A stretch of 40,276 nt of DNA from assembly GCA_008632985.1 (NCBI GenBank), contig QPGO01000063.1, positions 372,001 to 412,276 of the forward strand. Reading direction: 5' to 3'. A program made the position numbers and the translations under genes. Numbering within the stretch: position 1 is the stretch's first letter; each line of letters opens with the position of its first letter. The stretch is from Psammoneis japonica (lineage: Eukaryota). The notes under the pieces are model-generated. The model saw nothing but the letters and a program-made list of their open reading frames with translations, was not told where the DNA came from and made no database searches. Shown piece after piece: positions 1 to 27,199 of this stretch.

Positions 1-175
1 TGGTCAGTCTTCTTCCAACCAGTCTGTTCTCTTGTAAAAGAAAACTTTGCAAAATGACTTTCAGAGTGGCTTCCCATTGTTTGACATGCAAACCCAGTCT
101 GCAAGCATCAGTGAGAAGGTCAATTTAGATCTTGGTGAAAACAGCTGGACAAATGAACGTTGCAACACAGTGCAA

Positions 176-531
176 CAGTGTTTCCCGAATGTGCATTTTG
201 GTCGGACCAAATTGGCATTTTGGTCAAACCAAAATGCTTTTGTCGACCAAATTGCCAGACCGACCTGATCAATTTGGTTGACCAAATTGACATTTGCAAA
301 ATCTCGACCAAATTCATTTCATGCACATTTCCACACAAACAATGCCAACACAGCTTCTACGAAATTTGCATGGCATGTGTCGACATGCGCATTTTGCCAA
401 ATTTCCCCAACCAAAATGACATTTTTGGGAAACAAAATCATTTTGGTCGCGAGCATCAAATTTGTCAACAAACTTGGTCTGACCAAAATGCCAATTTGGT
501 CGACCAAAAAATGCACATTCGGGAAACACTG
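176..531. mobile_element. Non-autonomous DNA transposon (MITE-like) with ~55-bp terminal inverted repeats and CAGTG termini (hAT-like)
   Basis: Left end CAGTGTTTCCCGAATGTGCATTTTGGTCGGACCAAATTGGCATTTTGGTC is the reverse complement of the right end (...GACCAAAATGCCAATTTGGTCGACCAAAAAATGCACATTCGGGAAACACTG). Interior has many TTGGTC/GACCAA subterminal repeats. No target-site duplication is visible, so the superfamily is tentative. Confidence 0.75.
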
Positions 532-572
532 ATGGGGGGGGCAAGTGGCACATTGCCATTTTCTAAGAAAAA

Positions 573-756
573 TGAATGAATGCTGCCATGACAGCTGAGA
601 ATTGGGTGCAAGACAAGACAGAGTGTTGAACAGCATCAACAGGTTCTAGAATTGTGAGATGTTGCGCTGCTGGGGCCACTGAACAAGCGACAGTGGACCA
701 ATCGCCAACAGCACTTAAACTGCCTGCATCCGTGACAGTGCATCAGCATTTGTTCA
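573..756 (-). repeat. 3' LTR of the copia element (184 bp)
   Basis: Gap-free direct repeat of 7490-7673 with 17 mismatches by manual alignment. Begins TGAA, ends TTCA. Confidence 0.95.
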
Positions 757-766
757 GTCCCCTCGA
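757..766 (-). promoter_or_regulatory. Polypurine tract (plus-strand primer) of the copia element
   Basis: Minus strand reads ...CGAGGGGAC immediately before the 3' LTR. Confidence 0.6.
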
Positions 767-907
767 ACTGACGCCAGCTCCGCTCGGGTCAGATCGACAG
801 ACAAATGCAACCTGATGCTGCCCCATTCCAGGGCAGCAATTGCATTTTGGGGGTGGGAAAAAGCCGCACCTATGCGGCAAACCCGTTCGGTTTGTCCCCT
901 TTGGGGC

Positions 908-3900
908 TCACCACAGGATGTGACTTATGATTTCCCGGAGCTTCGGCCCAGGCAACAACTTGGTCAGTGCATCCGCTAGATTCGTGTGTCCATCTTCCCA
1001 AGCAATGCGCACTGTTCCAGCGGCTTGTGCCTCACGAGTCCTGTGATGGGCAATTGCATTGTGCTTCTTCTTCAAAGTGGACTCTGGTTTAGTTGAGTTC
1101 TTGAAGACAGCTTCATTGTCGCAGAAAACGTCAGTGGCCCCATCCATGGGGATTCGAGCATCCGAAGCTTGCAACGCAAGGCTTCAATTTGCTCCACTGC
1201 AGTCTTCACAGCCACGAACTCCGACCCAAAAGCAGAGGACTCTACGGTGTTCTGCCGCTTAGAGTGATGCAAGATGGGCACTTGTTGGATAAAGATCAGG
1301 AGACGGGTTCCAGTCCCAGGTGGGACTTTTTGTGACATTGGGCCCGCAGAATTCTGCGCGCGAGCTCCGCAGCAAAATTGTTGAGCAATGGACACATGAA
1401 TGATCGCCAACAGAAAAAGAGGCAATTTTGCGAACGCATCTCCTCCTCCACACTTGAAGTACATTCTTTGCGGCATGCCCGGGCAAACTCTTTAGACATT
1501 AAAGAACACACCCAGCGCATTTTTGTTGACGTGAGTGCAGATGACAGAAAGCCTTTGGCTTCGCAAAACAGGCAGTGTGGAACAATTTTTTATAATAGAA
1601 CACGTAGAAATGTACGTGCAAAACATGCGACGGATGATAAAAAATGATTGTGTCACAGTTCAGTGGCACGAGGTCCCACCTGGAGCTGGAACACGTCAGG
1701 ATCCCAGTGTGGGACCTGCGCGTCACACGGCATCCGGCGTGATCAGCATCGACAAAGCAAGCAGCAGTCACGTCATTCCTGCGTGCCTCCGGCACATTCG
1801 GCGGCATTGGTTCAGCCGCGCCAGGGTGACATTCTTCCCAATCACACTTGGTGAAGCGACTCTCATCAAAGACGGGCTCAGTGTTGTCGAACACCAGCGC
1901 AGGCAGACTTAGAATGAGCCTTCAAGTGTGCAAAGACATGGAGCACCTTGTCCAGGTGTCCAACTCGTGGTGCCGCCAAGTGGGAGGACATGAGCGAAGA
2001 CAGCAACAAAAATGTCCACTCGCCCCAGTTCAACCACCCACCGCAGCACACCGACAAGGCCTTGACAGCAGTTGGCCGTTTTGGTGTTCAACTCAGGTGA
2101 GCCGTCCAGTTCAGGCCCACGTCCCGAGCTCAAGGGTGTCGACACCTTCGTCGGAAGACGCCTGTCAGTTTTCTCAAGCTCCAATTCAATGTCAGCCAAT
2201 GCCCTTTTGACACAAAGGTCAGAGGACATGGCCCAGCATGTCTTGCCATCCGAGTCAGACAGCTGGCACTTTCCAACCTGGGCGCCTGAGCACTCTTCCG
2301 GCTCGCAGACGCTTCCGTCCTTGAGCGTGTGCCTGGAGCTCATGTGATCCATGACCTTCTGAGGTTCATGGGAGACGCACAACAAGTCGTCCACATGGAC
2401 AAGCACATGTTCCCAGTGCTTGAAGCCATCCGGCTCAACCGCAGCCCGCATCCAGACATCCGGGTCAGCCTTGCAAGACTCGAACCCAGCGTCCCGCAGA
2501 GCAGCTGCCACATGCTCCCTAAATCTTGCACCTGAAGATTTGAGACCATGCAAGGCACGGACAATGATCACCTGCCTTCCTTCGTTCTGCTTCCCAAATT
2601 CCAGGCCAGCAGTGGTGTGACATTTTTCCTCAGTGTGTGCCTTCAAGCAGGCATTCTGAACGTCAGCGCTCAGGACCTCCAGGTCATTCAGAGCTGCTGT
2701 GGTGAATGCCATCCTAACGCCATCATGCGACACCACGCTGGAACATGTCGATTCCTCAGGTGGATCGGTTTGATGGCCTCTGGCCACGAACCTCGCTTTA
2801 CGTTGGAGAGTGCTCTTGATGTCAAAGATCACATGACAGTCAATGTGTTTGCACCCGACCGGCACAGTGTCGTCATCGCGGAATTCGAACGCAGGCATGA
2901 CGTCACGCATTTCCTTCTCGATGGCTTTGAACCAGAAGTCGGTCCCCGTTCTGTCATCTATCTCCACAGCTTCCTCAACAGATTTCGGGAGTTCAATTCC
3001 GAACTTGTGCGCACATTTCCAGCAACGCGACTTGACTTTCTTCAGGATCCTCGACCTGCAACGCAAGACGTCTCGGACCCACCAGTTGAAGGCTGGCTCA
3101 CTGGCTGCTTTGTTCGCTGCAGCGTGCTCAGCAACCTCGACTGGGTTGGACTCCTTCAAATCCTTGAGAGGAACCCAGGATGTAGTCCCATCCTTCCATT
3201 TGACTTGCAGGTCCCAGCCTGCTGTCGTCCTCCTGGGAGCACGCCTGCCAGTCTTGGTCGTCATGTGCCCATCATCGGCCGTTACAGCACGGGCATCACG
3301 TCGGTGATCGACCATTTCCTTCATGATCTGGTGGGCATTCCCTTCAGAGTCGATCTGAGCGAATGGGTTCTCTGCAATTACGTTAGCAGCACAGGAATCA
3401 GTGGATCCATCAGGGAATTCCACGTCGTAAATCCTCGAGTCTAGGACAGGGTTGTCGTTCCTAGTGCCGACAGGAACCCCGTCGCCATCTCGCTTGTGTG
3501 CAATGACCCTAGCATGAGTCAGCTCGCCTCCTCGTGGTAACATGACTTGAGCTGTGAGACATTCATCTAGCCCTTCCGGGGCACGCTCATCAGCTTCCGG
3601 TTTGGAAGCGTTGGGTTCCACAGGTTCAACGGCATCATCCCATTCGTCCATGAAGTCATCAGGGAGTTCAGGGAAGTCAGCACTGGCATCCTTTTCCGGG
3701 ATGCTAAGCCGTTTGATCAAAGCTTGATCGACCGATGCAAGATCCGTCTGGATCGCCGGAGTTTTAAGGTCATCCTCCGGCATGGCCCATGCATCCTTCC
3801 AGATGATGGGTTTGCCTGATTCGGGCAAAATGATGAATGCCATGTCGTCAGTGCAGTTGTCAGCTACTCCGAGCCAACGGCCAATGCACTTCTTCTCGTG

Positions 3901-5521
3901 TGGGAATTCCGCCACAGGCATGCAGTGATGCACAGGTTGATGCCAATCAAAGAGAGAGAGGGAAGAGATGTCGGGTGCTGAACCTGTCACCTCCTCTTCT
4001 GGGACCCGTCCTCCCATGTCCGACACACTGGTCGCAATCATGCGTCGGATGTCACATGCCCATTTGGCGCCACAGGACCAAAGTCGCCTGTGAGCGCCAG
4101 TCCGGCATAGAGTCACACGGACTCTTTTCTTCAACTCACGAATGGATGCCTCGGCTGGGTTCTGCCAGGGGCTGTGTGGGGTGGACACCTCCTGGTGCAT
4201 CCTGCATTCCTTGCAGATCTCCTTGGTCTGGCCTTCCACCATTTCCGGTGCGCCATCCGACACAAGGACCTGCGGCACGCCAACGTCATGCACAAATGAC
4301 ATGACGGCGTCTGGGTAGGTCCTGTTTCCTCTTCCAAGGATGGAACCTGTCACACCCTCTTCCATTGGTAAATGCGCTTCCTCCTGTCTCGCCATGCATC
4401 GATTTAACCTTTGAAAACATTTTGTCGGAGTAGAGTCGTCCCTTGATCGCAGGGAACTTAAGCCAAGGGGCTTTCTTCCGGACTTTCCGTTCAGATGGTG
4501 TGCAGACATTACGGACCCCTGCCTGGGTCGTCACTCTAAGGGTGTTCTCAGCGGCCGTCAGGCCAATGTTCCACCTTTTAGAGAGCATCTCAGGCGTGAC
4601 AGTCGATGCACGACTCGAGGTCGACAGTGCATGCACCTGTTTCCGCTCGGCACAATCCGGGTGGACATCTGGGTCATGCCGGTCGTGTAGCCCGTCTCCC
4701 TCAGTGTCGTTGTGGGAGACATTTGCCTGAGCAACCAGGCGGTGATACAATGAATCATCGTCATTGGCATCCACAATGACATTGTCATCGTGACAGGACA
4801 TTTGGTGTGAATGAATGGAGGCGACACACCTGGTCGCATTCATCATCGTCAACCGTCCGTCCGACTTTGCTGATCCTTGGCGCACACTGGCACATGCATG
4901 CGCTTCCTCCTTTTGCGCCAGGGCATCAGCAGAAGGCTCCCATCTCAGGGGTGATGTGAGTTCCAGCCGAGGGACATTCTCCAGATCCTCCTTTGTTGGC
5001 TTGTGTGAATCAAAGACTGAAGCAACACCTCGCACTCGCAACGGCATCCTGATCTTCGAGTCAGGAAAGGAAATGGAGTGTGTGCTGGTCGGATCAAACT
5101 GGCGAGGGGTGTCGTGGACAGTCAGCCCATTCGCTCGCAGTTGGTTGGGGCACAGGAGGGTGTCAGTCATCTTGTCCCCAAAAAACACAGCCTCGTGGAC
5201 CAGCAGCAGGTGTGGTTGTCCATCAGTTGGATCAACCCACATGGCAGCAGCCGTGCAAATGGGAATGTTTTCCATTGGTGCATGCTCTTCAGAGCAGGGG
5301 TGTGCCACGACAGTTCTGTCGATGTCAGAGTGCATCACAAAATTGGACCCAACAGCACACGTGTCAGCGTGCGAGTCCAAATCAGTGGTGGCTTCGTCAT
5401 CTGAATTTCCAGCAGATGACAAAGAGACATGTGTGTCTTTTGAGAATCGCCCAGATGAACAAACAGTGCCAGCAGGTTTAGTGACATCTGGTTCCATGCC
5501 TTTCTGTGCTGGCGCAACCAT
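908..5521 (-). pseudogene. pol: Copia pol (protease, integrase, chromodomain-like segment, reverse transcriptase, RNase H), frameshifted and interrupted by a MITE
   Basis: Protease LDSHADT. Integrase VSDGA...PHSPWQNPAE. RT KARFVARGH, DVQNACL, ALHGLKSSG, HVDDLL. RNase H FVDADHAG...RRSHTG, SKRQNTVESSAFGSEF, CDNEAV, NLADALTK. Split over ORFs 4286-5521, 1909-4509, 1499-1894, 1072-1476 and 908-1174. Confidence 0.93.
1302..1697. mobile_element. 396-bp MITE inserted in the copia RNase H domain
   Basis: 25-bp TIRs (GACGGGTTCCAGTCCCAGGTGGGAC versus reverse complement GACGTGTTCCAGCTCCAGGTGGGAC) and AGGA duplicated at 1298-1301 and 1698-1701. Removing it restores RRSHTGILIFIQQ. Confidence 0.88.
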
Positions 5522-6943
5522 TCATTCCTCCTTCTGAGGTTTCGCATGCGCACTGCGACCAAACTGGGTGCCTGCATTGGCGGCAGGTTTGTCAGGCTCT
5601 TCGGAGTCTTTTGGTGCATCAGTGGGCTGAGCAGTGGGCTCGGCAACAGCTGCTTTCTTCACAGCGCGAGTTTCGGCATCGACCGACTCAGCCTCCGAGG
5701 ATGCAGCAGCAGCTTTGCATTTCTTTTCGGCCTTCTTGGCATCACTCAGCTTTTGGACTTGCTCTCGTTCGGGACCGTCAAGAGCACTCCACTCTTCAAT
5801 GGGACAATGGCCTGCCCGGATCCTGGGCTTGTCCTTCTTAGGTTGGTGCTTCCCACCAGGGTTGCTGCGCCGATTGTTGTGGCGTTGGATGGATGCAATC
5901 CCGCGAGTGTCGGCATTGCGGTTCTTGGCATTCTCGACCAGAGTTTTCATGTGCTGCTGGCATGCCTCAAAGTCCACTAGCTTCGCAGGGTTGCCGTCCA
6001 CCACGCTCTTGCCAGTTTCCAACCCAGGGTCAGAGACACCCTTCAGAAAGTCAGAGACCTTCTTGGTCTCGGCCACTGGTTCATCAAGCTCAGACAAGTC
6101 GTTGTGAGCCTTTTGATGGCGCTGGGTGCACTGGTCAAATGTAAAATCGACCCCGTCCGGTGCACTTCGCGGCAGCAATCTGTGCACAAGCACGGTTCTT
6201 TCGGGCAGTGGCGGCAGCCGATCCTTCCGCCTGCCTCTCAAGTGCGAAGAAGGCAGTGCGACCATCGCGACTGCGATTGGAAGGTTTGACAAAAGCCCAC
6301 CCGGGCCCCCCTGTCACTGACTTCTTCAAGAGGTCATGCAGGCGTTGCCTGTCCTGCGCATGCTGAGCTCCTGCAAGGTGGGTGGCAGCAGTGAGGTCCT
6401 CGTCAATGGCAGTGCAGGCAGCAGCCAACATCTCAGTGGTGGCTTCTTCATGTTCCCCAGTCAGGCAGACAAGGGGAACTCCGGAAACGGCGCTGCGGTG
6501 GTGACGCAGTTCGGTCTCCAGCAGCTCTTGAAAGGCAGGCCAGTCGTGTGGGTTCTTGAGCTCCACGGCCGTTTTGGCAGCCGATTCGTCGTCCGAGTCG
6601 GCGGACTTGAATTGCTCCAGTTCCGTCAGACGTGCCGTCCATGTTCCAATGACGTCGCCAGCGAAGAGAGCAGCGGTCGGCTCTTGATTCCGAGCTCTGT
6701 GGCAGTCAATCCATGCACGCAGTGCCTTGAGCTTGCGATTCGCCAGGCATGGAAAGCGGACTTGGGGGTTGGCGGCGGCATCCGCGCTCTTCACAACACC
6801 TCAGTCATGTCGGCAATTTCCATCAAAGGGACCTGTTCCAGGTCCTCGATCGCAGTGAAGCCTTGGCGGGCTGTGCAGGTGCGCGTCTGTGCATTGCATC
6901 CACAATGCGTAAGACAGGCGGTGAAGGCTGCGGCAGCGGCCAT
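5522..6943 (-). pseudogene. gag: Copia gag, frameshifted
   Basis: ATG at 6943, then ORFs 6135-6794 and 5522-6292 with CoDi gag-like segments (GVPLVCL, DGRTAFFAL, FTFDQC...HQKAHNDL, KKVSDFLKGVSDP). Lies between the PBS and the protease. Confidence 0.85.
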
Positions 6944-7475
6944 GGTGTGTCAATGGCTGTTCGCGTTTCGACGCGTGAGCATCCACTTGTGTGAGTGGAG
7001 GAAAGGGAGAAAAATGTGTGGTTCTCATGCCGATTTGGCGGTTTCTACTTAGCGAACCCGCGAGCAGGCGGTGTTACCCCTAAGCAACAATATCCAACAG
7101 ACATGTATCCACATGTACAGTGTCTAAACAATTCGATAACGTATTTTGATTAATGAAATGTATATGATCAAATAACAGACCTCAATACATAAATCATTAT
7201 GTTATCTATATGACGAATGTTTATATGTCTTAGCCAACATATTCCATCCACCTGATCAAACATTTCGTATACTAACGTCATGTCTAACGGATCACAGCTC
7301 TGGTCTCCAAGAGCATATCGTTCATATCCATGAATATTGATATATATAAAGGACTCAGCGATTACGCGAGCAACCATGGGACCAACATGGCGCTTGCCGC
7401 AAAAATCGATCGATCGCAACGATGCCGTCGTACCGTTCGCGATGCCCGTTCCAGGCGATGAACATCATAGTGTAT

Positions 7476-7486
7476 TGGCTCTGATA
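7476..7486 (-). promoter_or_regulatory. Primer-binding site, initiator tRNA-Met type
   Basis: Minus strand TATCAGAGCCA three bases inside the 5' LTR, matching the core of the canonical TGGTATCAGAGC PBS. Confidence 0.75.
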
Positions 7487-7489
7487 AAG

Positions 7490-7673
7490 TGAATAAATAC
7501 TACCATGATAGCTAAGAATTGGGTGTAAGACAAGACAGAGTGTTGAACAGCATCAACAGGTTCCAGAATTGTGAGATGTTACGCTGCTGGGGCCACTAAA
7601 TAAGCGACAGTGGACCAATCGCCAACAGCGCTTAAACTGCCTACATGCATGACAGCACATCAGCATTTATTCA
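7490..7673 (-). repeat. 5' LTR of the copia element (184 bp)
   Basis: Direct repeat of 573-756 with a perfect 9-bp terminal inverted repeat TGAATAAAT...ATTTATTCA. Confidence 0.95.
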
Positions 7674-8439
7674 AAAATTCACTGTTTGAGAATTCACAGA
7701 GATTTTTTGTCATTGATTGTCCCGTGTTTTCAAATTGTCCATTTCTGATTTGTGACAAGCACCTCCATGTAAAATGCAAGTGACAAGGCAAAACAACAAC
7801 AAACAAGAGCTTGCAGGCCCACATCATTCAATGTGAGTGTGCATTGTGAACTTGTCATGCTGCTGTTGCATGAGACAATGGCCAAATGACTGACTTGTTG
7901 CACAAGTTGGATGCCAAAAAACTCTGCAAATTTGGTGCACCACCGTGTGGAATTTCGCTGATGACCAGTCTGTCCTCTTGGAGCAAAAAAGGCCCTTCTT
8001 GCAACACTGGCAATGGTGTTCAGAGCCATGAGTCTGGCAAACAGAGGCACAACAGCACATCAGTTGATGATGGCAGAAGACAAAGAAAGAAGTGTTGGAG
8101 CATAAAAAAACTTGTCAATTTTGGAAACAAAATCAACTTTTGCAGAGACATCAAAATGCACCTGAGGCCATTCAAATCATCAAAAGTGAAGTGTTTGCAT
8201 TTCCTCTGCTGTTGCATCAACACACCAAGTCACACAACCTCTCACTCTCATCATCTCAACATGTCACACTACAACCTCTCACTCATGATCTTAACATGTC
8301 ACACACAGCTGTGCTCAGTGAAGCAGCTGCTTCTCTGCCATGTCCATGACAAAAGTGCCTGGCAGCTCTGACAAAGCAAACAAATTGGGTTTGAATCACA
8401 CAATGACTGGCTTTCAACCCAATTCAGTTAAAATGGATC

Positions 8440-11400
8440 CCAGTTGGCACAAGGACAATGGATGTGAAGTCTTGCTTTGACAGTGGCTCACCTCATGGTG
8501 GGGATCAGCCTGAGATGGAACAGCAGAGCAGGAGAGCCAATTGAGATGCTCTCAACTCTGGAGCAACTCCTGCGCTGCATCAGCACCAACTGTGGAGTGA
8601 CTGAAATGTCTTTTGGGTCCCAGATGCAGAGAAGGCACCAGGCATTGGACAAGGGAATGGTGTGGGGACCTTGAATCTGTTGTGATCAAGGAAAAAAGGA
8701 GCCAGGTTTGCATGTGCCCTGCAATGAGACAACACAGTGGAGTTTGCAGGGTTCTGTTTCATCAATGATTTCAACAGCTTACAATGCATTGGAGAGGGAG
8801 GAGATGAAGCAGTGGAGTGAGTTGTCTGCAGAGTGCAAGACACTGATGATCTTTGGGAGGCAGGCACAAGCACAACCAGCAGTGGAGTTGCACTGGACAA
8901 GAACCTGTGCTGCTGCCTGGTGGCTTTTAAGTGGAAGCAAGGCAACTGGTCCCACATGAAGCAAAAGGAATTGAATTGCAAGTTCTCTCTGTCAAGGACA
9001 TCAATGGGGACATGGGCATTTCACAAGGCAAATCAAGGCCCATGAAGCAGAGCATGCATTGGGCATCAGGCTTGCAGTTGACAGGAACAACCAGATGGAA
9101 GTGAAGCACCTCTGCCAGGTTGCTGAAGAGTGGGCCAAAAAGGCCACAACAGGACATCTCAACTGTCAGGATGTGTGGTCAAACCTGACCACCACAGCAA
9201 TGAAGACTCTTGAGCATCCGTTGCCAGCTCTGACAATCTCAAAAATTCAAGCCAAGTTCACCATGGCCCCAGTCCCAAAGAGGGGACTCCCAGAGCCAGT
9301 GTTTGCCAAAACATGACCAGAGATGTCATGTGTGACTCACCCACCTACCCAGGGCCTGTGCACAAACAACCTGTTTGCAACTGGCAAGTCCACAGCACAG
9401 ATCAGAGTCATCACAAAACACTTGCAACTGGGGACTGTCACAGGTGACCTGATCAATGCAAACCTTCAACAGCATCAGCTTGAGTTGCGACTCCTGGGGA
9501 CAGTTCTTTGACCACTGCTGCAAGGATTTCCCGCTCCTTGCAACTGAACTCATGGGTCAAGGATGTTTGGAAATTCCTGCCCAAGAACAGATGCATCTGG
9601 AAACTGACTTGCCCACCCTTGCCACACACCGTGGAATGTCAAGTTCCTGATTGAACAGCTCCACACAAAGTGGATTCAAGGGCAAGAAACTGACTTGAAT
9701 CAATCTGCATCAACTCTTCTTGCAGGTGAATGCAATCTCTGACATTGTCACAGGAAACAGGAGATGGGTGCTGCAAAACTGCTTTGATGGTGACCTGCCA
9801 ACACATGATCTGTGCCAATTGGAGTGCAACTGGCCAGTTCAAGGCAACCCTTGCACAATGATTGGAGGTGGTGGAAGAAGGAGGCCCTGGAAAGAGTTGC
9901 AGGTCCTCAGAGAACACAATGATCATTGGCCCTTTGCACAATAAATGGACAGACCAAGCAGTGCACAATTGGCCCCATTTCTTGTCCGCTGCAGATCAAC
10001 ACCAAGTCTGGGAGCAATCCCAGGATGGTGGATGGAGGTGTTGCACACTGGTGCCACAAAGTCCTGCTTGATCCAGTCAGCAAAGATGCCACTTTGGAGG
10101 TGAAATGGACAAGGCCCATGCCAAGCACAAGAGAGCAACCTGCCAGAGGAACAGACTCCACTTGACCTGCAAGAAGCAATTGACCAACTGTCTCAGACAT
10201 CAGGTGGTTGGTGGAGGATTGCAAGAATGATGATGACAGGCTGAAATTGCCAGGGCTGTGTTTGATGGGATGGCCATGGCAATCTCTGATGGCTCTTGTC
10301 AAGCAGGGAGGGGTGCATCTGCATGGACCATTTGAGGACTTTGGGGTGCCCACATGAGATCAAAGGGACAAACATGACAAGGGGCAACCCATCCAATGTG
10401 AACACACACCATGCAGAAATCAAAGGTCAACTTGCAATGTTCATGACAGTCAATGCAATTGGCCACCTCCACGGGGTTGCATGGGGCCATGTGACAATCC
10501 GTTGTGACAGCAATCAAGCATTAAAAATTTCCAACATTTTGGACTGCCATTGAAGGCCAATCACAAGCAATTTGACATTCTCTCAGCTGCTCACACCTGG
10601 GTCAAGAAATGCCTGGTAAAATGGGCAGCCATCAATGTGAAGGGGCATTTGGATGACCATGTGGCATGCAAGGACTTGGATCGTCCCTCCCAAATGAGTG
10701 TTGACATGGACACAAGAGCAAAGGAGTGCCTCTTGGAGATTGACTCCATCCCAGGGGACCAAAGAATGCAAGGCAAAATGTGGGTGCTGTGGATTGGAGA
10801 TTGAAGAGGGCAAGGTGGCATCAAACCTGACCAATGCCATCTGCCATGCTGTTGATGGGAAGAGGTTGCTCTGGCTCTGGGTCAGCAAGGGTGGGTTCTC
10901 CACACTGACTGTCAGGGAGACAGACTGGGACTCACAGGTGAAGGCATTGTCTGACTTCAAACCTTCTTGACATTGATGGGCAGCCAAACACATGTCTGGA
11001 CCATGAGGCATCAATGAGGTGTCATGTCATTGGGGAGAGTCTCTGGTGCAATCTTGCCCAAGGTGTCTGCACCCAGTGAAGGACTCCAACCAGCATGCGC
11101 TCACAAGCCAAGCAGAGAGCACTGTCAAGACGTGGCACAACTCCTTGCACAAACTCAGGGGGTGGATGCTCAAGTCAGGAACAAACCCCAAAACAGCCAA
11201 GACAATCATTCAATGTCTGTGAGAGTGGAAAGAAGGTTTGCCCATGCCACCCATTGAATCTCATGATGAAGGAATCCAAGCCATGGTGCTGGACTCACAA
11301 GACTCCATCACACTGGATGGAGGAGGATTCATCAAGGGTTGTGTTTCACTTGACAGGAGGTTCACCCAAGATGCACACTGCAGGAGGGCAAACTCCAGGA

Positions 11401-11800
11401 AACAAGGACAGCGTTGGGTGAGATCACTGACTGCCAAAGCACATGACATGTCCTGGGATCAGCAGGAACGTCAAAATGGCATCGCCCATCATCCTGCTGC
11501 TGCAATGATCACAGAAGCACAGGTCAAAAAAGCAAAAGAGAGGGTCTGCTGCAAGTTTGCTCTGGGTCCCCAACAACTGCTGCCAATGGACAAGCATTTG
11601 TTTGATGCTGCACTCAATGAGCTGCTTTGGAGCACACTTGAGTGCTTGAGAGCATGGCTTGACAATGTGGGCACAGCAAGAGATGCTCGCCGTCGACAGC
11701 AAGGTGAAAGCAACAATGCTGCAAGTGGCTGGGAATTCATGCTGTGCTGGCTGCGAGGTGCGAACACTGACATTTGATGGTGGGCGATGCCAAGGCTGTT
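8440..11800 (+). mobile_element. Decayed, 5'-truncated non-LTR retrotransposon with RT, RNase H and C-terminal Cys motif (diatom Ambal-like)
   Basis: RT remnants DVKSCFD (~8462), GIGQGNGVG (~8641), FCFIND for FVDD (~8750) and thumb region GIRLAVDRNN...KTLEHPLPALT. RNase H remnants HAEIKG, IRCDS, NVKGHLDD. CPRC...H knuckle at ~11054. Many stops and frameshifts; boundaries approximate. Confidence 0.8.
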
Positions 11801-12210
11801 TGGCAGTGCCACAAGCGGCAATCTGTGCTGAGTTGTTCACTCACATTTGTCACAAAATCTGTGAGAGAATCGTCTGCCACAAGAGAAGTAAAGAACAATC
11901 AACCTTTCTGGTGTTTCTACGATGGAAAATTATGAGCAATTCTAAAGACATCCAAGTCACCGAACAACAATAAATTGTTGTGACAGTTAAATCGTGACAT
12001 CTCTTGTCACTTCTGACACTCCATGGTAGACGGACAGACACCCAAATCGTTGGCGGAATTCCATTCCCGGTCAAAGGTATCGTATGATACGGTAGACTAC
12101 CGGTAGTATGGTACGGTAGGTGAGGTCAGAGCGAGCGACGAGCGAGGAGCGAGGAGTCTCCAGTCGAACACAACGAAGCAGCGGTGCTATTTAAAGCACT
12201 CTTAAAGGTA

Positions 12211-13203
12211 ATGCCATTTCGTACCAGATCAGCTCCCCTTCAGGTCAGATTGTCAATGATTCATCGGTGCATTTTACTGCTCCTTGTACTGTTGCTCCTG
12301 ACTTCCCTGTTGATGGTGAGCACACTCACAGCTGCCAATGATAACACGGAAATGTTTAATGCTCCACCTGGGGCTCCTATGATGAAAACGACGAACAAAT
12401 CGGAAATCAAAACAATTGCGATTCTAGGAGAACGTAACTCCGGCACGACATGGATGCTCAAAGAGATACAGCGATGTTATGGCGAGAACTTTGAGATTCT
12501 AAACCATCTGACGCGACATAAGCATGCCTTTCAATACGATACCAGAAAACCTCGTAATCGAACGCTAGTTGTGTCCGAATTTCGAGACCCGTACCAATAT
12601 GTTTTGGCAATGATTGAAAAGCCTCGCAAAGCTATTGCGCATCGACAAATGGATTGGAAAACCTTTGTGACGACACAGTGGACCACGAAACGCGAAGAAT
12701 CAGACAAGAAGTATGCCAACAGCACTGACCCCGTCTGTCAAGATCGTTACAAGTATGCGGAAGTCGTTCCGTGCGAACATGACAATGTACGACCAAACGA
12801 ATATTTGACCAACAAACGACTGCGGTACAACGAGAAAGAGCCAACTCGCGAGGAACCAATTCAAGATATCCCACTTTATGAAATGAAACGTGACGGATCG
12901 GGCGAGCCATTTGCCAGCATTGTCGATTTGCGTGCTGAAAAGATTCGCAATCACGCTGTAGAGGTTAAAGATTTCTCCTTTGTTGAAGACGTCGTTATCG
13001 TAAGATACGAGGATTTGCTACAGGAAGGGACGGCACCCTTGCACCAACAAATATCAGAGATTGTAGGGACCAAGCCTCACTGCGATGCGACGCCGCCACA
13101 GAAGGATCGGCCGCAACGTCAAATCAAGGATGATTTCAAAAATTGGATGGACGAGCACGTTGATTGGAATGCTGAAGCTCTTATCGGATATAAGAAGTAT
13201 TAG
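12211..13203 (+). CDS. Secreted or membrane-anchored P-loop sulfotransferase-like protein (GERNSGT family)
   Basis: Intact ORF with first ATG at 12211. N-terminal hydrophobic segment, ILGERNSGT motif, RDPY and VRYEDL motifs typical of sulfotransferase-like folds. Normal TpA/CpG and Tyr content. Confidence 0.8.
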   Translation: MPFRTRSAPLQVRLSMIHRCILLLLVLLLLTSLLMVSTLTAANDNTEMFNAPPGAPMMKTTNKSEIKTIAILGERNSGTTWMLKEIQRCYGENFEILNHLTRHKHAFQYDTRKPRNRTLVVSEFRDPYQYVLAMIEKPRKAIAHRQMDWKTFVTTQWTTKREESDKKYANSTDPVCQDRYKYAEVVPCEHDNVRPNEYLTNKRLRYNEKEPTREEPIQDIPLYEMKRDGSGEPFASIVDLRAEKIRNHAVEVKDFSFVEDVVIVRYEDLLQEGTAPLHQQISEIVGTKPHCDATPPQKDRPQRQIKDDFKNWMDEHVDWNAEALIGYKKY

Positions 13204-14548
13204 TAGCATATTTTTTTACAACTGACACTATCGCATCGATTCGCCACATTTTTGACTCATTCTAGAGATTCGCCGGCGAAGTCACTCAGACAACAGTTCT
13301 TCACGCCGACAGAATGCAACCCGGACAGCATTTCCCGTATTGTTAGATCCACCATATCCTTATACGCAGGCGTACGGCGGATCACCTTTTTTTTCGCGTA
13401 ACGGAGACTGTCCACGTGTCGTTCGGCCTCCTCTGTCAGGAGCTTCCGACACTCATTATTAGAAGCATTGAATGTCGTCTTTGCTGCTATTGCCTCCCAG
13501 TCAAAGCTCCGTTCCAGAATATTAACATAAAAAAGGTTTTCATTGAAAGCTTCATCTTGAAGCAAATGAGAGGTTGAATCATGCTTCGCAAGTTTTTTGT
13601 CGGCCCAAAGCGCCATGTTTCGAAGCAACTCCACGGCCTTACCAACACCTTCGTGAAGTCGTCGTTGGTAAGCAGTTGAATTACAAAAGATAGTACTGAA
13701 TTGGCGATCCAGATCCAAATGATGAAGATTTCCATCTTTGTCCATCAGCACTTGAAAGTCATGAGTGAATAATGGCACTGCCTTGATCAGCTCCAGTGTT
13801 GTTTTGGCATCGCGCTCAAGGTTACGGGCAAATTTCTGTACTTCCGTGGGGAAATACTCCAGTTTACGCTGAACGACATCCCAACTTGATCCTTTCACCA
13901 ATAAATGTGGATCCGGTGCAACTTTGACTCTTTGGATCATCACATTCTTACCAGTGATGTACTTTTCTTCGAGTTGCTTTCTTTTGTTTGCGTTGCGTAG
14001 GTTTGAGCTCAGCAGAGCGGCGGAAGAGTCTGTGACATTCACATAGCTGGGAGGCCCCAAAAGAAAATGGCTTATTCCAAACTCATTCGTGAGATACTGT
14101 GATAACTTCCATCCTTCTTCCATCTGAACAGTTCGCTCGTTTCCAACGTTGGAGACGATCAAGTACCCTAGGTGTTTGTCGGCCTTGTCATAAAAGAAGC
14201 ATTTGACAGCACCACAAAGTCCACCAATATTCATGTTCAGTCGATTCCAGTCAAAAATATCTTCAGAAATGTTAGGCATAGAAATGTTCAAATCACTCTC
14301 TTTTCTTTCAGGTGTTGAAAAATCCAAATCGTTCTCTTCTCTTTGCTGTTGTTGTCCTAAAACACTTGCCTGCAAATGCATCTCTGTCAGAGAAACAAAT
14401 GCGAAACTGAAGAATAGCACTAACTGGAGGATGAAAAGTTTTGGTTTGCTTGCTTTGTCTTTGTACAAATGCATAGTAGGAAGCGACTTTATGCTCTTGT
14501 TTTTTTTTTTTTTGTTCTGAACAAGACAGAAGGAATCATCTAATGATG
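13097..14548. repeat. Segmental duplication copy A (3' end of the GERNSGT gene plus most of the convergent gene)
   Basis: Collinear, highly similar direct copy at ~21413-22837. Confidence 0.92.
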
Positions 14549-14597
14549 ATCGCTCAATAGCTTGTGGTTTTTTCGGCGGATGATGCATGATGGTCAT
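13257..14597 (-). CDS. Hypothetical type II membrane protein, 446 aa (GxCGxxKCFF...DFQVLMDKDGNLHHLDLDR; possibly an atypical kinase-like fold)
   Basis: Intact long ORF with a basic N-terminus, one hydrophobic helix and normal composition. Paralog at 21561-22830. The fold guess is inference only. Confidence 0.8.
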   Translation of the reverse strand: MTIMHHPPKKPQAIERSSLDDSFCLVQNKKKKNKSIKSLPTMHLYKDKASKPKLFILQLVLFFSFAFVSLTEMHLQASVLGQQQQREENDLDFSTPERKESDLNISMPNISEDIFDWNRLNMNIGGLCGAVKCFFYDKADKHLGYLIVSNVGNERTVQMEEGWKLSQYLTNEFGISHFLLGPPSYVNVTDSSAALLSSNLRNANKRKQLEEKYITGKNVMIQRVKVAPDPHLLVKGSSWDVVQRKLEYFPTEVQKFARNLERDAKTTLELIKAVPLFTHDFQVLMDKDGNLHHLDLDRQFSTIFCNSTAYQRRLHEGVGKAVELLRNMALWADKKLAKHDSTSHLLQDEAFNENLFYVNILERSFDWEAIAAKTTFNASNNECRKLLTEEAERHVDSLRYAKKKVIRRTPAYKDMVDLTIREMLSGLHSVGVKNCCLSDFAGESLE

Positions 14598-14699
14598 GAT
14601 TCATGATGGTGCGTCGGAGGGAAGTTTCAGTCGTGAGTCGAGTCCCACTATGCATTAGTCCCACGGAGAGCGAATCCTGCGCGACAGTTGGTCCCCAGC

Positions 14700-17600
14700 C
14701 ATGGAGGAGCCAAGTCTGAAGTCTCAGGGAGAGCAAGTCTGGGACAGTCAGAAGAGAGCCTTGCATTGTGTGCCCATAATTTTAAAAGAACAGCAGATTT
14801 TAAAAGATGCCCTTAGCACAGAGGCCACAGGAGCCATCAAACATGGCATCAAACCTTCCCAAACAAGAATGTGTGTTTTGTCACTCGAGAGATCAACAAG
14901 GAGGGATTTGGGAATGACCTCACAGACCTTGCAACAGCCCATCAATCACTTCCTTTGTCATTCTGCAACCTGCCACATGAACCACTCAGAGTGCAAAATT
15001 CCATCAAATTTCCAATTGGTGCAATTTTCCAACATTGGCTCAAACACAAAAGAAGTGCTTTTCTCTTTGTCACGACCTCGTTGTTGGCTGCCACCCCAGC
15101 CTCCTTTCCAGCCAGCCACTCCTTTTTTGCCATGAATCTCTTGGCAAGGTTTTGGAGTTTTCAACCATTGCAACAATTTTCAGAAATTTTTTGGCACCAA
15201 AAATTCCCACTCTGGCTGCCTCAAGAGCCACCTGTCCCAGGGGGTCGAAGCCAGATTCAGAACATCCAGGGGACCTGGGTGCACCTCCAAAACTTGCACT
15301 GGGTGCATCAACAAAACCATGCATGATGGAACAAATGCCAGTGAAAAGACCATGAAGAGCCATCACACCAGGGGCAGAAGATGGAAGATCACAAAAAGAA
15401 AGGGGTCTGAGGGCATCGATGTCGCACTTGAGTTTCTGAGCAAGGGGGGGGGGGGACTTTGTTGGGCAAGAAGCACTTCCAGGATCATGTGCAGTTGTCA
15501 TGGGCAGGTTCGGGGAGACAAGTGGGGTCATGCCAGCAGCATTTGACAATTTTGAGTGCCCGCCAGCACTGGGGGAGGGGCTCAAAGACCGAAAAGTGGC
15601 CAGCCCCAATTGATGGATGTCTGAGATGGAGAGTGTGCTCCCTTGTGTCAGACAGACTGGCTCATGTGGGCTGGAGTGATCCAATGATGATCTCTCCTTT
15701 CTCACTTTCTCTCAGCTCTGGTGCATGGCTGCATCTGTCCCAGACATCAACAGATCCTCATCCCAACACCAGCAGATTGCAAGATTGCTTGTGAGCAGCA
15801 GTTGTGTGCTGTTTGCATTTCTTGACACAAGCACGCTCCCCCTTGACATGTTGTCATCATGACCACCACAGAACACACGCCAGTGCTCTGCACAAGAATT
15901 TGATTTTTGTTCTTCCCATAAAACCATGGTCAACAAGAATGCAAACACAGCCAATGAGACTGAGATCAAGCCAATGCTGGTTAAACCCAACCCACACAAT
16001 CACTCACCTGATGCCCATCAACACCTGAGTGCCCTTCACTCTGATGAGACACAACTGTTCCTGAAGATCTTCTGGACTGATTTGCTCTTCCTCCAAGCCT
16101 CAAGAGCAATGCTGTTGCATGTGTCCATCATGAGATCATTCAGGGTCTTGTCATTCTCTGAGCTGTGCCAGCTGAGGATCTCACAAGGATTGGGCTGGTC
16201 ATGGACAGTGCTCCTCTTTTTGTGGTGGCTGCCCCATTTAAGTTCTCCAATTCATCTGAACCATGCCCATCTTTAGAAGGCCAAGATGCAGGCTGTCTTG
16301 CAGGATTGGGATGCTGTGACAACACATGTTGAGACCCTCTGTCTCCACTTTTGTCCTGGTTTTGAGTGTCGTGACCATTGGAAGAACACACATCAGATGG
16401 TCCATGCCCCAAGTCCTCTCATTCTTGGAGTTCTTCATCTCAACTGGCTGCCAGTTTAGATCCTGCTCCTGGAGATTTTGTGCCAAGGTTTCAGCTGCCC
16501 ATTTGCCTGGCCCAAAAGAGTGTGGGCAAACTGTGGCCAATGCATTGGAGAGTGCTCCACCACCTCCCAAAAATGCTGCCTCAACCACACCTCCATCTGC
16601 TGTCCTGTGTGCCTTCAACCCCAAAAGACTTCCTTTGGATGTGTTGACTCACTGCCAATGCAACGAAGACAGCAAGATGATTTTGGGAAAGTTTTTGGCT
16701 CCCTGCAAGCCATGCAACTGCTTGTGTTGTGTGAAGATGGTGATGACTCTTCTTTTTTGTTGCACAATGAGTGGGATGCCAAGTCTTTGCTGTGGGATCC
16801 CCATGCTTGCAATTGCACTTCTCTGCAAGGAATGTTTGCATGTGGTGCATTGCTGTGACCCAGCAGGCATGGCTTGTGGCATCCACATGTGTGCATGTTT
16901 CATCAAAGATGGAGACAATTGTGATGATTTTCACTTTGAATGTGAGGGCCTCTTGCACAGATGAAGCTGACTTTTTGACAGCACACTCAGAATGTTGGGG
17001 GCCATGCTTCTGACTGTGTTGGTGTCAACAACAAACCTGTTGGATTGCTGTCTGTGATCACTTTTCTTGTGCAGTCCATGGTGTTGCACGGGTTTCCAAG
17101 GCCAGTCCTCTCAAATGGCTTTGCTGATTTTTGGATCAACATTGGCCACATTGCTGTGACAAACACATGTTTGTGGATCAGGTGAGAATCATGCACACAA
17201 AAGTCCAAAAGTTTGTGACCTTTCTTGTCAAGAATTCCACTGTGACTTGTGCCCTTCTGGTGTTGGCACATCCAGTCAATGTGGGCCTTTTTAATGCTCA
17301 CATTTGACTGTTGAAAATGTGGTTTGTGCACTTTTGATTGTGTTGCCAACCTTCCAATTCAATTCTGGACCTTTGTTCTGTCACTGCCTGTGAACCAACA
17401 ATGCCACTCCATCAAAAGATCAAGATGCTTCTCCTTGCTGTTGCTGCTGGCAAGGTTGAGGATGCAGCTGCATCAAGGTCATTTGGATGTTGCACATGGG
17501 CAAAGCAGCCATCCAACTGACCTGTTCAATTCACAACAAACTCCAAGAAGGGTGTCTTCTGTGGTTGTCCTTCTAATGCCTTGAATGACATGCTCTGGTG

Positions 17601-19200: not shown

Positions 19201-19209
19201 CTAAAATGA

Positions 19210-19246
19210 TGTTTCCTGAATGTGCATTTTGGTCAGACCAAATTGC
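19210..19246 (+). repeat. Solo fragment of the TIR of the 176-531 MITE family
   Basis: TGTTTCCTGAATGTGCATTTTGGTCAGACCAAATTG matches 179-214, with its CpG sites decayed. Confidence 0.8.
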
Positions 19247-19369
19247 CAAGCTCAAGTGTGAGCCTTGCTTGCTGCATTTCTCCACTTGTTTGTCTCCTTT
19301 TGTGCTCCTTGGCACTGCGCCTCCCTCAACTTGTGGTGGCACCGACAATGCCTCAGCACCCCAGCAGGC

Positions 19370-24547: not shown

Positions 24548-25110
24548 GCCAGCATCATTTTTGATCCTAGAAAAGATGTGTTTTCTTGGTGCCAAAGATG
24601 ACTTTTGAGGCCACAGGACAGTGCTGACCTTTGCATCTGTTTAGTCAAAAGCAGATGTGCAGATCTCACCATGGCACACGCTTGCTCCCACAAAGGACAT
24701 CTCATTGACACCCTTGCTGAGATCACCGTGGCACTCCAGCCACATCCTCATTGCAACAAGGCACTTTCAAGAAGCACCTGAGCTGTCTGTGCGCAGTTTG
24801 ATCATTGAGCTTGACCAGCTTTTTAATGGAGCCAAACACACAGAATCAAAAGACAGCGCTGCTGACCTCTTGCAAGAGTGTGCACCACCAATTGTGCAAT
24901 CCTGTTGGAGACTAGAGACCACACAGATAAACTGCCGGCAGTTGTGTCTCTCATCCTTCAAAAGTTGCCTTTGCAGATCACAACTCCAACCAGTGATGAT
25001 GCTCCATCTTGTTTCTCAAGACAGATGTTGGGTCACAAGATCAAGGCTGCTGCTCTCAAGATCTGCACCCCAAAACCAGTCATTCAGATTGATGTTGGAC
25101 ATTTCCACAT

Positions 25111-27022: not shown

Positions 27023-27199
27023 TCCTTTTAGAAACACCACAACCACATGGGAGAGCAGTGGCAGACAGCTGCCTGACCCAATGACAAAAACACTGAAGCT
27101 GGACAATGTGAGCAGCAGCTCAATGAGGAAGCAAGAGCAGGTTCAAGAAGGGACCACGGAAGATCCAAACCAAGTTCAAGGGCCACATGGAGGAACTGT

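Follow-up and report, generated by a model that had tools for sequence, protein, structure and literature searches.

TpA-restricted hypermutation signature in a copia-like retrotransposon of the diatom Psammoneis japonica

Mobile DNA is mutated in a dinucleotide-specific manner in several lineages. Fungal RIP changes C to T, for the most part at CpA; TpA becomes more frequent as a result, and reading frames fill up with TAA and TAG. APOBEC enzymes deaminate C on the minus-strand cDNA only, leaving G>A changes on the sense strand, gradients, and new stop codons. Among adenosine deaminases, TadA edits the U-A-C of the tRNA anticodon loop.

The closest described system is that of Bigelowiella natans, in which, according to the text of a preprint, integrated NCLDV and virophage DNA undergoes TpA-restricted hypermutation (Mettrop et al., bioRxiv 10.64898/2026.01.13.699255, 2026). 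As reported there, 230 of the 231 new mutations found in two integrated viral regions of mutation-accumulation lines were A>G or T>C. The authors place all 230 changes at TpA, and the de novo rate in resident DNA is given as ~1000-fold over background. One of the two viral regions is described as single-copy and silent, and TpA-poor coding sequences are described as enriched in RT and DDE domains. The authors propose an ADAT2-like DNA adenine deaminase; DNA activity is cited in the preprint for only a few ADAT2 proteins (10.64898/2026.01.13.699255).

The DNA analyzed here (the window) is a 40-kb contig stretch of the diatom Psammoneis japonica. A scan of dinucleotide observed/expected ratios (o/e) reveals sharply bounded TpA-poor blocks amounting to ~29 kb of the window. 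The depleted blocks (29,250 nt in total) retain only 145 TpA, with o/e values of 0.08 for TpA, 1.73 for CpA, and 1.72 for TpG. The TpA o/e in the normal blocks, which carry host genes (10,376 nt in total), is 0.55. TAA and TAG trinucleotides together occur at 3.8 per kb in the depleted blocks versus 17.6 per kb in the normal blocks. The block edges are resolved within one 250-nt bin (for example, one TA at 6751-7000 and 24 TA at 7001-7250), and no gradient of depletion is found, saturation being already reached in the first 250 nt beyond a boundary. The features are listed below by position in the window.

1-572, no strand: left flank, older TpA-depleted DNA that hosts the element insertion; TpA o/e 0.08
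568-572 (left) and 7674-7678 (right), no strand: target-site duplication AAAAA, read from the sequence; low-complexity, with moderate support
573-756, minus strand: 3′ LTR, hypermutated; 2 TA left, TpA o/e 0.17, TG..CA ends, pairs with 7490-7673
757-7040, minus strand: internal region, hypermutated; TpA o/e 0.11-0.24, CpG o/e 0.66-0.73
908-1174, 1072-1476, and 1499-1894, minus strand: RNase H pieces within the hypermutated internal region
1309-1699, no strand: 391-nt MITE-like insertion bounded by terminal inverted repeats and interrupting the RNase H region; seen as an alignment gap against the nearest intact homologue
1909-4509, minus strand: integrase and RT ORF of 866 aa with 2 Tyr, the one flagged by the original prediction
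4286-5521, minus strand: protease ORF within the hypermutated internal region
5522-6292 and 6135-6794, minus strand: gag-like ORFs within the hypermutated internal region
7046-7489, minus strand: leader, unmutated; TpA o/e 1.10 (7046-7347) and 0.65 (7348-7489)
7490-7673, minus strand: 5′ LTR, essentially unmutated; 12 TA, TpA o/e 0.85
7679-11750, no strand: older block, right flank of the insertion and beyond; TpA and CpG both nearly absent
11900-14700, no strand: normal host block used as control; TpA o/e ~0.55-0.63, CpG ~1; includes a 339-aa ORF with 13 Tyr
14751-21250, no strand: TpA/CpG-depleted block, by composition
23251-29000, no strand: TpA/CpG-depleted block, by composition, with a 292-nt tandem repeat at 23667-24547
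33251-39250, no strand: TpA/CpG-depleted block, by composition

The element at 573-7673 on the minus strand is assigned, from its sequence, to the Ty1/copia (CoDi-like) LTR retrotransposons. An RVT_2-type reverse transcriptase is detected (Pfam PF07727, E 1.2e-10, 41.9 bits versus a cut-off of 31.6), and 5850 library proteins match at E ≤ 1e-10. The named matches are to the diatoms Fragilaria crotonensis, Epithemia clementina, and Attheya sp. The nearest intact homologue (P0151, 1370 aa) is collinear with the element from 5380 to 911 by tblastn, giving the domain order protease, integrase, RT, and RNase H. PHSPWQN, a putative integrase-type motif, stands upstream of the RT. The LTRs are direct and have TG..CA ends, the target duplication is 5 bp long, and the leader contains, adjoining the LTR, TATCAGAGCC, which is presumably a primer-binding site (PBS). 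The polyprotein is broken by frameshifts near 6143, 4317, and 1900-1997, by an in-frame TGA at 5522-5524, and by the 391-nt insertion, around which the alignment of the homologue stops with residue 1240 at 1700 and restarts with residue 1238 at 1308. The bin of this insertion has the highest summed contig depth in a public sequencing run.

The loss of tyrosine from pol should be noted, since it was the starting point of this analysis. The counts originally given, 2 Tyr in the 866-aa pol ORF versus 13 in the 339-aa host ORF at 12184-13203, are confirmed. The pol ORF also contains 33 His and 31 Cys, and ~32 Tyr would be expected from the homologue median of 3.66% (269 proteins; P(≤2) = 9e-12). 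All the motifs quoted in that prediction are present, HVDD, ALHGLK, NACL, TCSSVVS, and PHSPWQN in this ORF and AIAHH in the ORF at 908-1174, and each aligns opposite a Y-bearing consensus motif. We then scored the columns in which Tyr occurs in at least 70% of the 21 full-length homologues aligned with the ORF (n = 15). Tyr is replaced in 14 of the 15 columns, mostly by His or Cys: seven are His (CAY), five Cys (TGY), one Trp, and one Arg (CGT), with Tyr kept in one. Control columns are retained almost completely (Phe 8/8, Trp 11/11, Gly 28/29, Asp 18/19). Over the whole pol (1348 aligned residues, read across the frameshifts), the 48 Tyr of the nearest intact homologue correspond to 3 Tyr, 21 His, 14 Cys, and 10 other residues, and 35 of these 48 ancestral codons are CAY or TGY. 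Because conserved Tyr residues are lost, among them that of YVDD, the pol enzymes are presumably disabled.

TpA depletion is not a trait of the family to which the element belongs. Tyr content is normal (at least 1.58%) in 384 of 386 homologues; the other two, public copia proteins, are Tyr-poor with the same His/Cys signature. The TpA o/e is 0.46-0.87 in 80 of 80 related metagenome loci. Intact relatives with His or Cys at these positions, which would have spoken against the idea, are absent among the 386 homologues. A variant genetic code is excluded as well, as host genes use TAY for Tyr normally.

The proposed cause, mutation at TpA turning TAY into CAY or TGY, is borne out by the codons at ancestral Tyr positions, by the TpA o/e of 0.11-0.24, and by the LTR comparison described below. 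Since Tyr is coded only by TAY, the products are His (CAY) or Cys (TGY). Both strands are mutated, with 21 CAY versus 14 TGY at ancestral Tyr codons. Enumeration of TA>CA/TG changes over the codons shows that no sense codon becomes a stop and that only TAA>TGA stays a stop. TAA and TAG themselves contain TpA, and stops are therefore erased rather than made. This accounts for the frame that stays open for 2.6 kb without added stops, correctly distinguished from RIP in the original prediction, even though the polyprotein taken in full is not intact. The focus of that prediction on pol and Tyr is too narrow: the effect is real but specific to neither, extending over ~29 kb of blocks and leaving the 5′ LTR and leader untouched.

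The flanking bases of the surviving TA sites are strongly biased. The density of surviving TA per kb in the depleted relative to the normal blocks is 0.69 for TTAA and 0.60 for CTAG, but only 0.038 for GTAC, 0.011 for ATAC, 0.008 for ATAT, and 0 for GTAT. RTAY sites are thus nearly erased, while YTAR sites are largely spared. In the LTR pair, seven of the eight informative sites fit A followed by a pyrimidine, in our own reading of the alignment. The flank rule seen among the survivors does not show at the Tyr codons, where pyrimidine-preceded codons give 9 His and 8 Cys and purine-preceded codons give 10 His and 5 Cys.

The two LTRs give the direction of change, TA>CA/TG. They differ at 18 of 188 sites, 12 of which are TA versus CA/TG; at 11 of these the 5′ LTR has TA and the 3′ LTR has CA/TG, and at one it is the other way round. 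The remaining differences are two adjacent sites that form one CA-versus-TG dinucleotide, two of CpG type, one transition, and one transversion. About 85% of the TA sites in the 3′ LTR are changed, by 8 A>G versus 3 T>C on the plus strand, whereas the divergence outside TA and CG is 2 of 188 sites. Identity is 90% between the LTRs as bases and 99.5% as purine/pyrimidine strings. This near identity, together with the 12 of 18 differences of TA type, indicates that the DNA itself was changed, either during integration or afterward. The 5′ LTR and ~440 nt of the leader (7046-7673) lie unmutated within otherwise saturated DNA; TA sites are dense from 7046 onward, and 6400-7045 has a single TA, at 6910. 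Simple mutation of a silenced region would not predict such a spared tract. A process that depends on reverse transcription or on repeat length would.

In the older depleted blocks, Pfam and copia searches found no recognizable mobile-element genes; we assume that these blocks are mobile DNA. CpG decay is a separate, slower process laid over the TpA loss in the older neighboring blocks. Within the 292-nt tandem repeats, the same dinucleotide is CA in one copy and TG in another, and such sites make up 4, 6, and 12 differing positions across the three pairwise comparisons, which points to the copies having been mutated independently.

These observations are probably best explained by TpA hypermutation restricted to mobile DNA and acting on the DNA copy of the element, likely through adenine deamination at 5′-TA. 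The data above show the signature itself, with TpA converted to CpA or TpG by A:T>G:C transitions on either strand within restricted regions, as well as its direction, boundaries, flank preference, and effects on coding. The target would be the DNA copy rather than the RNA genome, mutated near to saturation with sharp stops at the boundaries. The chemistry would most likely be deamination of adenine to hypoxanthine at 5′-TA, catalyzed by a deaminase that is directed to silenced mobile DNA, as proposed for B. natans. The enzyme and the guiding signal named here are putative, and a role in defense may be suspected.

A mutator of the same TpA chemistry may instead choose its target, in a RIP-like manner, as repeated rather than as silenced or foreign DNA, which we consider unlikely though worth weighing. 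Very many related contigs exist in the public run (9580 matched, nearly all on 1-8000), though their summed depth is not a copy number. In the spared tract, positions 7203 and 7212 are at approximately single-contig depth (64, two contigs), and the other copies diverge at 7342-7348, where contig ends are loose. The spared stretch may accordingly be unique sequence beside a repeat too short for recognition, although the uniqueness of 7046-7347 is a matter of two data points. Against such a trigger, a 1.45-kb duplication in normal DNA (92.5% identity) is not hypermutated. Its 109 differences have a balanced spectrum (42 transversions, 31 other transitions, 20 TA-type, 14 CG-type, and 2 CA/TG doubles), and its two copies keep 57 and 65 TA. 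A target in B. natans is, moreover, reported as single-copy in the preprint.

Editing before integration is rather improbable in our judgment. An adenosine deaminase would here act on the element RNA, the single-stranded cDNA, or both, and copies would arrive already mutated, as APOBEC3-hypermutated proviruses do. Such editing fits the razor-sharp block edges with untouched host genes, and the spared tract coincides exactly with the 5′ LTR and the PBS-proximal leader, with the 3′ LTR mutated. When retroviruses are reverse transcribed, early plus-strand strong-stop DNA gives rise to the 5′ LTR, and it is in the 3′ LTR that the minus strand remains single-stranded for the longest time. A mild sense-strand excess of T>C (21 versus 14 Tyr codons, 8 versus 3 LTR sites) points the same way. 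However, the strands are mutated similarly, whereas editing of RNA alone would give sense A>G and editing of minus-strand cDNA alone would give sense T>C. Moreover, the gradient is absent, the first 250 nt being already saturated, and the boundary lies ~440 nt inside the leader rather than at the PBS. The B. natans signature, as described in the preprint text, arises de novo after the DNA has integrated.

Modified DNA can cause systematic base-calling errors on some platforms. We nevertheless regard an artefact of sequencing, base calling, or assembly from modified bases in repeat DNA as highly improbable. The stretch is present only in runs of one sample, and the run that confirms the window, with independently built k-mer contigs reproducing the depleted state at ~60x word depth, may be the source of the assembly itself. 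A 4714-nt contig of this run spans 8119-12830 with 6 letters differing, and a 3317-nt contig spans 14336-17661 with 13 letters differing. The changes behave as inherited mutations, with LTRs that differ and tandem copies that resolve the same site differently, and the Tyr>His/Cys pattern recurs in both of the Tyr-poor public copia proteins. The open 2.6-kb frame could speak for an element that still functions and either has been selected to avoid TpA or uses a variant code, but this reading can practically be dismissed: 14 of 15 conserved Tyr are replaced, relatives have a TpA o/e of 0.46-0.87, the element's own 5′ LTR retains TA, the polyprotein is frameshifted, a host alpha-SNAP gene fits its Pfam family under the standard code (E 2.8e-67), and the mutation spectrum alone accounts for the open frame.

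If TpA hypermutation of resident mobile DNA is the correct reading, the process also operates in diatoms, a separate and ecologically dominant lineage, for which our literature searches found no report of TpA-restricted hypermutation. Several diatom species are genetically tractable, and the enzyme, guidance, and defense role would then be testable. It would be a genome-defense mutator with a chemistry that is the mirror image of fungal RIP. The process raises GC, removes stops in all six frames, and swaps Tyr for His or Cys, so that decayed elements look like long ORFs, diverge fast in ordinary alignments, and may inflate gene counts. Comparison in purine/pyrimidine space restores the similarity of the copies, as for the LTRs here. 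LTR divergence would give badly wrong dates for such insertions if TA and CG sites were left unmasked.

A wider reading is offered tentatively, as one that we find possible but lean against. TpA adenine deamination may be an old and widespread defense of SAR protists (stramenopiles, Rhizaria, and perhaps more), saturating on every diatom mobile-DNA insertion. It may recognize RTAY as a palindrome-like site and be guided by small RNA or repeat status, precisely enough to leave alone 300 nt of unique sequence within a targeted element together with the 5′ LTR next to it. Since stops are erased and not made, diatom genomes would then be seeded with long, meaningless, His/Cys-rich and Tyr-poor frames that gene finders call as genes.

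Among the known systems, fungal RIP in ascomycetes shares with this locus a DNA-level, dinucleotide-specific, transition-only change of mobile DNA with sharp limits and a permanent scar. Here, however, TpA is destroyed, CpA and TpG are raised, and stops are erased; RIP is rejected on these grounds (TpA o/e 0.08, TAA plus TAG 3.8 versus 17.6 per kb). APOBEC3 editing likewise involves a context-specific deaminase on a retroelement, with the 5′ LTR region spared relative to the 3′ part. Editing of the APOBEC type on cDNA is rejected because the changes are A:T>G:C on both strands; they also show no gradient and add no stops. ADAR and ADAT enzymes of the TadA family convert A to I, which is then read as G, and favor a 5′ U or T, and the 5′-T-A-pyrimidine preference found here resembles the U-A-C target of TadA. 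These enzymes are known as RNA editors, unlike the DNA-level change at this locus.

Comparison with B. natans, as far as the preprint text goes, reveals both differences and a close correspondence. The lineage is a diatom (stramenopile) here and a chlorarachniophyte (Rhizaria) there, and the hypermutation is documented here for an LTR retrotransposon, the B. natans case being described in a single preprint. The signature there comes from real-time mutation data, whereas here it is read from sequence comparison, and depletion reaches an o/e of 0.08 here versus a Rho of 0.45 in the NCLDV region. The preference for RTAY over YTAR, the sharp edges, the spared 5′ LTR and leader, and the CpG decay are not mentioned in the text of the preprint, whose supplementary tables may contain flank data. 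In both organisms, the changes are exclusively A>G or T>C at TpA, and it depends on the strand whether TpG or CpA results. They are confined to foreign or mobile DNA, here a copia element, with normal host DNA alongside, and the lasting trace is clusters poor in TpA and rich in CpA and TpG. The signature at this locus thus matches a process so far reported, in that preprint, only in one unrelated alga.

The pol ORF at 1909-4509 (minus strand, 866 residues), which is of the copia type (Pfam RVT_2, E 1.2e-10) and has relatives in the thousands, contains 33 His and 31 Cys residues and only 2 Tyr residues, versus 13 Tyr in the 339 residues of the ORF at 12184-13203. Tyr content lies between 1.6 and 5.2% in 384 of the 386 collected homologues (median 3.66% in the first 269), so that about 32 Tyr residues are expected in the pol ORF; the probability of 2 or fewer is 9e-12. 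The Tyr depletion noticed in the original prediction is thus borne out. Conserved Tyr columns were defined as those with Tyr in at least 70% of 21 aligned full-length homologues. At these 15 columns the window has Tyr once, His (CAY) seven times, Cys (TGY) five times, and Trp and Arg (CGT) once each, while the control columns in the same alignment are retained (Phe 8/8, Trp 11/11, Gly 28/29, and Asp 18/19). When the whole pol is read across frameshifts against P0151, the nearest intact full-length copia homologue (1370 aa), 48 Tyr residues correspond to 3 Tyr, 21 His, and 14 Cys, and the codons opposite them are CAC (14), CAT (7), TGC (9), and TGT (5). Ile>Val, Met>Val, Thr>Ala, and Ile>Met are also common, as expected from TA loss spanning codon borders.

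Two of the 386 copia-type proteins, both RT fragments, are likewise Tyr-poor, P0082 (0 in 380 residues) and P0149 (1 in 267), and carry His or Cys at positions where their closest relatives carry Tyr; they are therefore traces of the same process elsewhere in public data. Close copies of the element family were not found in protein databases: the best match across the full region is 61% identical, and shorter proteins do not exceed 69% in local identity.

The cause of the Tyr loss is a regional loss of the TpA dinucleotide, not a property of the pol gene, and the phenomenon is wider than originally stated.

TpA-depleted and normal blocks of the window (o/e, observed over expected).
1-7000, depleted block
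about 7750-11750, depleted block
14750-21250, depleted block
23250-29000, depleted block
33250-39250, depleted block
Depleted blocks, 29,250 nt in total: o/e TpA 0.08 (145 TA), CpA 1.73, TpG 1.72, CpG 0.30
Normal blocks, 10,376 nt in total: o/e TpA 0.55, CpG 0.99

The block edge near 7000 is sharp, with 1 TA in 6751-7000 versus 24 in 7001-7250 (24.5 expected); TA resumes at 7046, and the sole TA shortly before is at 6910. The flagged copia element mostly keeps its CpG (o/e 0.66-0.73 versus 0.02-0.3 in the other depleted blocks), indicating that TpA loss is separable from CpG loss and comes first. At some edges (21251-21500 and 23170-23500) CpG recovers before TpA, with CG present from 21301 and TA only from 21498; the borders of both depletions are therefore not exactly identical. 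None of 80 related metagenome loci is TpA-poor (o/e 0.46-0.87), in a selection that favours intact copies. Five of them (L061, L035, L028, L075, and L005) have CpG o/e of 0.06-0.24 with normal TpA (0.60-0.72), and other hosts therefore undergo CpG decay without the TpA process.

No identity was found for the older depleted blocks: among 53 ORFs of at least 120 aa, matches are confined to the host SNAP gene, and 120 ORFs of 70-119 aa give only three sub-threshold chance hits. Matches to 13 copia proteins by tblastn are confined to 911-5467 of the window, and self-comparison of the window in purine/pyrimidine space reveals no additional repeats or LTR pairs. The SNAP gene of the host marks it as a diatom.

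30405-31662, minus strand, alpha-SNAP gene (Pfam E 2.8e-67)

Its named relatives are from diatoms only (66-70% identity). The gene is divided into two ORFs, 31189-31662 and 30405-31151, each of which matches Pfam SNAP, suggesting a short intron near 31152-31190. Short tandem repeats are also seen at 32348-32838 in normal DNA (units of about 162-178 nt) and at 35753-35928 in a depleted block (86-nt unit).

Among the runs listed, the stretch is contained in three public ones from one sample, possibly the assembly's own, and no RNA run is among them. Independently built contigs of one of these, run X1, also show the depleted state, with a word depth of about 60x: a 4714-nt contig spans 8119-12830 with 6 letters different, and a 3317-nt contig spans 14336-17661 with 13. 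As the sample may be that of the assembly, this agreement excludes assembly or polishing artefacts and is not an independent biological replication. Almost all of the 9580 run X1 contigs similar to 1-20000 fall on 1-8000. Compared with the window, the run X1 contigs show 793 transitions and 97 transversions, and 921 places with another letter.

The original prediction that the frame stays open without added stops also stands, and for a simple reason. Enumeration of all codons with their neighbours shows that no sense codon becomes a stop through TA>CA or TA>TG; among the TA changes only TAA>TGA involves stops, and for CG>CA or CG>TG the one codon that yields a stop is CGA. TAA and TAG trinucleotides on both strands fall from 17.6 per kb in normal blocks to 3.8 per kb in depleted ones, and this scarcity gives rise to long spurious ORFs in all six frames. 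That the 2.6-kb frame is open follows automatically from the mutation spectrum and the youth of the element and is not evidence of function. The polyprotein is in fact broken by an in-frame TGA at 5522-5524, by frame changes near 6143, 4317, and 1900-1997, and by an insertion. In run X1, one window base is missing at 4317 in all contig depth, and at 6143 and 1997 in part.

1309-1699, MITE-like insertion of 391 nt with inverted ends, splitting the RNase H region

The bin of this insertion has a summed contig depth of about 53,000, the greatest in run X1, and the insertion retains six clustered TA at 1591-1638 (TpA o/e 0.34).

The direction and timing of the change can be read from the LTRs, since the two LTRs of a single insertion are identical at the start.

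573-756, 3' LTR, and 7490-7673, 5' LTR; TG..CA ends, AAAAA duplication on each side

The pair differs at 18 of 188 sites and is 99.5% identical as purine/pyrimidine strings. At eleven sites a TA of the 5' LTR corresponds to TG or CA in the 3' LTR, and at one site the relation is inverted; two adjacent sites belong to a single dinucleotide for which one LTR has TG and its partner CA. The remainder comprises two CpG-type differences, one other transition, and one transversion. Approximately 85% of the TA sites of the 3' LTR have changed, versus 2 of 188 sites outside TA and CG, so a slow background process cannot account for the pattern. Together with the CAY and TGY codons at Tyr sites and the regional TpA loss, this spectrum upholds TpA mutation as the interpretation of the Tyr replacements.

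Copies of a 292-nt tandem repeat in a depleted block (three copies, 23667-24547) disagree at dinucleotides where one has CA and another TG; such dinucleotides make up 4, 6, and 12 of the mismatched positions when the copies are compared in their three pairs, indicating that the copies were mutated independently. A 1.45-kb direct duplication in normal DNA (13097-14578 and 21413-22859; 92.5% identity) has a balanced spectrum, its 109 differences consisting of 42 transversions, 20 TA-type, 14 CG-type, and 31 other transitions, and 2 CA/TG doubles. TA-type changes per site are only about twice as frequent there as other changes. The duplicated copies carry paralogous ORFs of 446 and 324 aa and flank a TpA- and CpG-depleted block; a protein atlas search with the 446-aa host ORF gave no informative match. 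Both strands are affected, judging from 21 CAY versus 14 TGY at Tyr codons, which excludes editing of the RNA genome alone or of minus-strand cDNA alone.

Which TA survive is non-random with respect to their flanks. Relative density is that of surviving TA in depleted blocks relative to normal blocks, by tetranucleotide.

Surviving TA by flank (R, purine; Y, pyrimidine).
TTAA, YTAR, spared: 31 survivors, relative density 0.69
CTAG, YTAR, spared: 17 survivors, 0.60
TTAG, YTAR, spared: 22 survivors, 0.37
GTAC, RTAY, erased: 3 survivors, 0.038
ATAC, RTAY, erased: 1 survivor, 0.011
ATAT, RTAY, erased: 1 survivor, 0.008
GTAT, RTAY, erased: 0 survivors, 0

From these densities, RTAY is the best target and YTAR the worst. 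The preference equals a half-site 5'-T-A-pyrimidine if A is the mutated base. In our reading of the LTR alignment, 7 of 8 informative changes agree with it. A strict flank rule at Tyr codons is not supported, as codons preceded by a pyrimidine still became His (9) or Cys (8); the rule weakens at saturation.

Within saturated DNA, the 5' end of the element (7046-7673) has escaped mutation, with a TpA o/e of 0.65-1.10; it consists of the 5' LTR, a PBS-like site, and a leader portion of about 440 nt. Its part at 7046-7347 is an AT-rich 300-nt segment (GC 0.36) whose TpA o/e of 1.10 exceeds the host norm of 0.55; this segment, apparently at single-contig depth in run X1, is flanked by the repeated PBS-proximal leader on one side and by the hypermutated body on the other. 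The spared tract may reflect protection of the promoter end of the element, or possibly gene conversion by an intact copy at a later time. Coupling of the process to reverse transcription may also account for it, the 5' LTR being made from plus-strand DNA that is synthesised early; against this, both strands are hit and there is no gradient. Alternatively, the target may be recognised through repetition. In line with this reading, run X1 covers positions 7203 and 7212 only at about the depth of a single contig, and at 7342-7348 the other copies diverge; against it, the 1.45-kb duplication in normal DNA is not hypermutated, and the target in Bigelowiella natans is described as single-copy (10.64898/2026.01.13.699255). 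Since in B. natans the mutations affect integrated single-copy DNA that is already resident in asexual lines, the analogy favours a process in the window that acts after integration and does not depend on repeats.

In the window, the change at TpA is by transition only, affects both strands, postdates LTR synthesis, is regionally bounded, and prefers RTAY. The simplest route to A:T>G:C would be deamination of A to hypoxanthine at 5'-TA. TadA/ADAT and ADAR enzymes prefer 5'-U/T, with which deamination at 5'-TA is consistent. Such a deamination process may be guided to silenced mobile DNA, and the TpA process may act as a defence. Polymerase-eta WA>WG errors were set aside because ApA is undepleted and transversions are rare, and GC-biased gene conversion because it is without dinucleotide specificity. 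Thymine oxidation to 5-formyluracil is a conceivable cause that nothing here supports.

A search of the literature turned up no diatom study that describes the loss of TpA from mobile DNA. The words TpA, RIP, dinucleotide, deamination, and hypermutation did not occur in a word look-up of Maumus et al. 2009 (PMC2806351), nor in one of a 2025 preprint on diatom TEs (10.1101/2025.10.24.684338). The phenomenon corresponds to a process that has been reported a single time, and very recently, from a different protist lineage. According to the main text of Mettrop et al. 2026 (10.64898/2026.01.13.699255), two integrated viral regions in mutation-accumulation lines of B. natans mutate at about 1000 times the rate of the rest of the genome. 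A>G or T>C changes, all on TpA per the authors, make up 230 of the 231 new mutations in these regions. The larger region, besides being single-copy, is transcriptionally silent. In that genome, stretches poor in TpA and rich in CpA and TpG form 124 clusters, and reverse transcriptase and DDE domains are over-represented among TpA-poor coding sequences. An ADAT2-like DNA adenine deaminase is the enzyme that the authors propose.

The finding is relevant to genome defence, diatom genomics, and mutation spectra. The TpA signature is common to both systems, whereas the window belongs to another eukaryotic lineage, concerns an LTR retrotransposon, and is near saturation. Flank preference, on which the supplementary tables of the B. 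natans study may bear, the extreme sharpness of the edges, the escape of the 5' LTR and leader from mutation, and the CpG decay overlaid on the TpA loss are features of the window without mention in the main text of that study.
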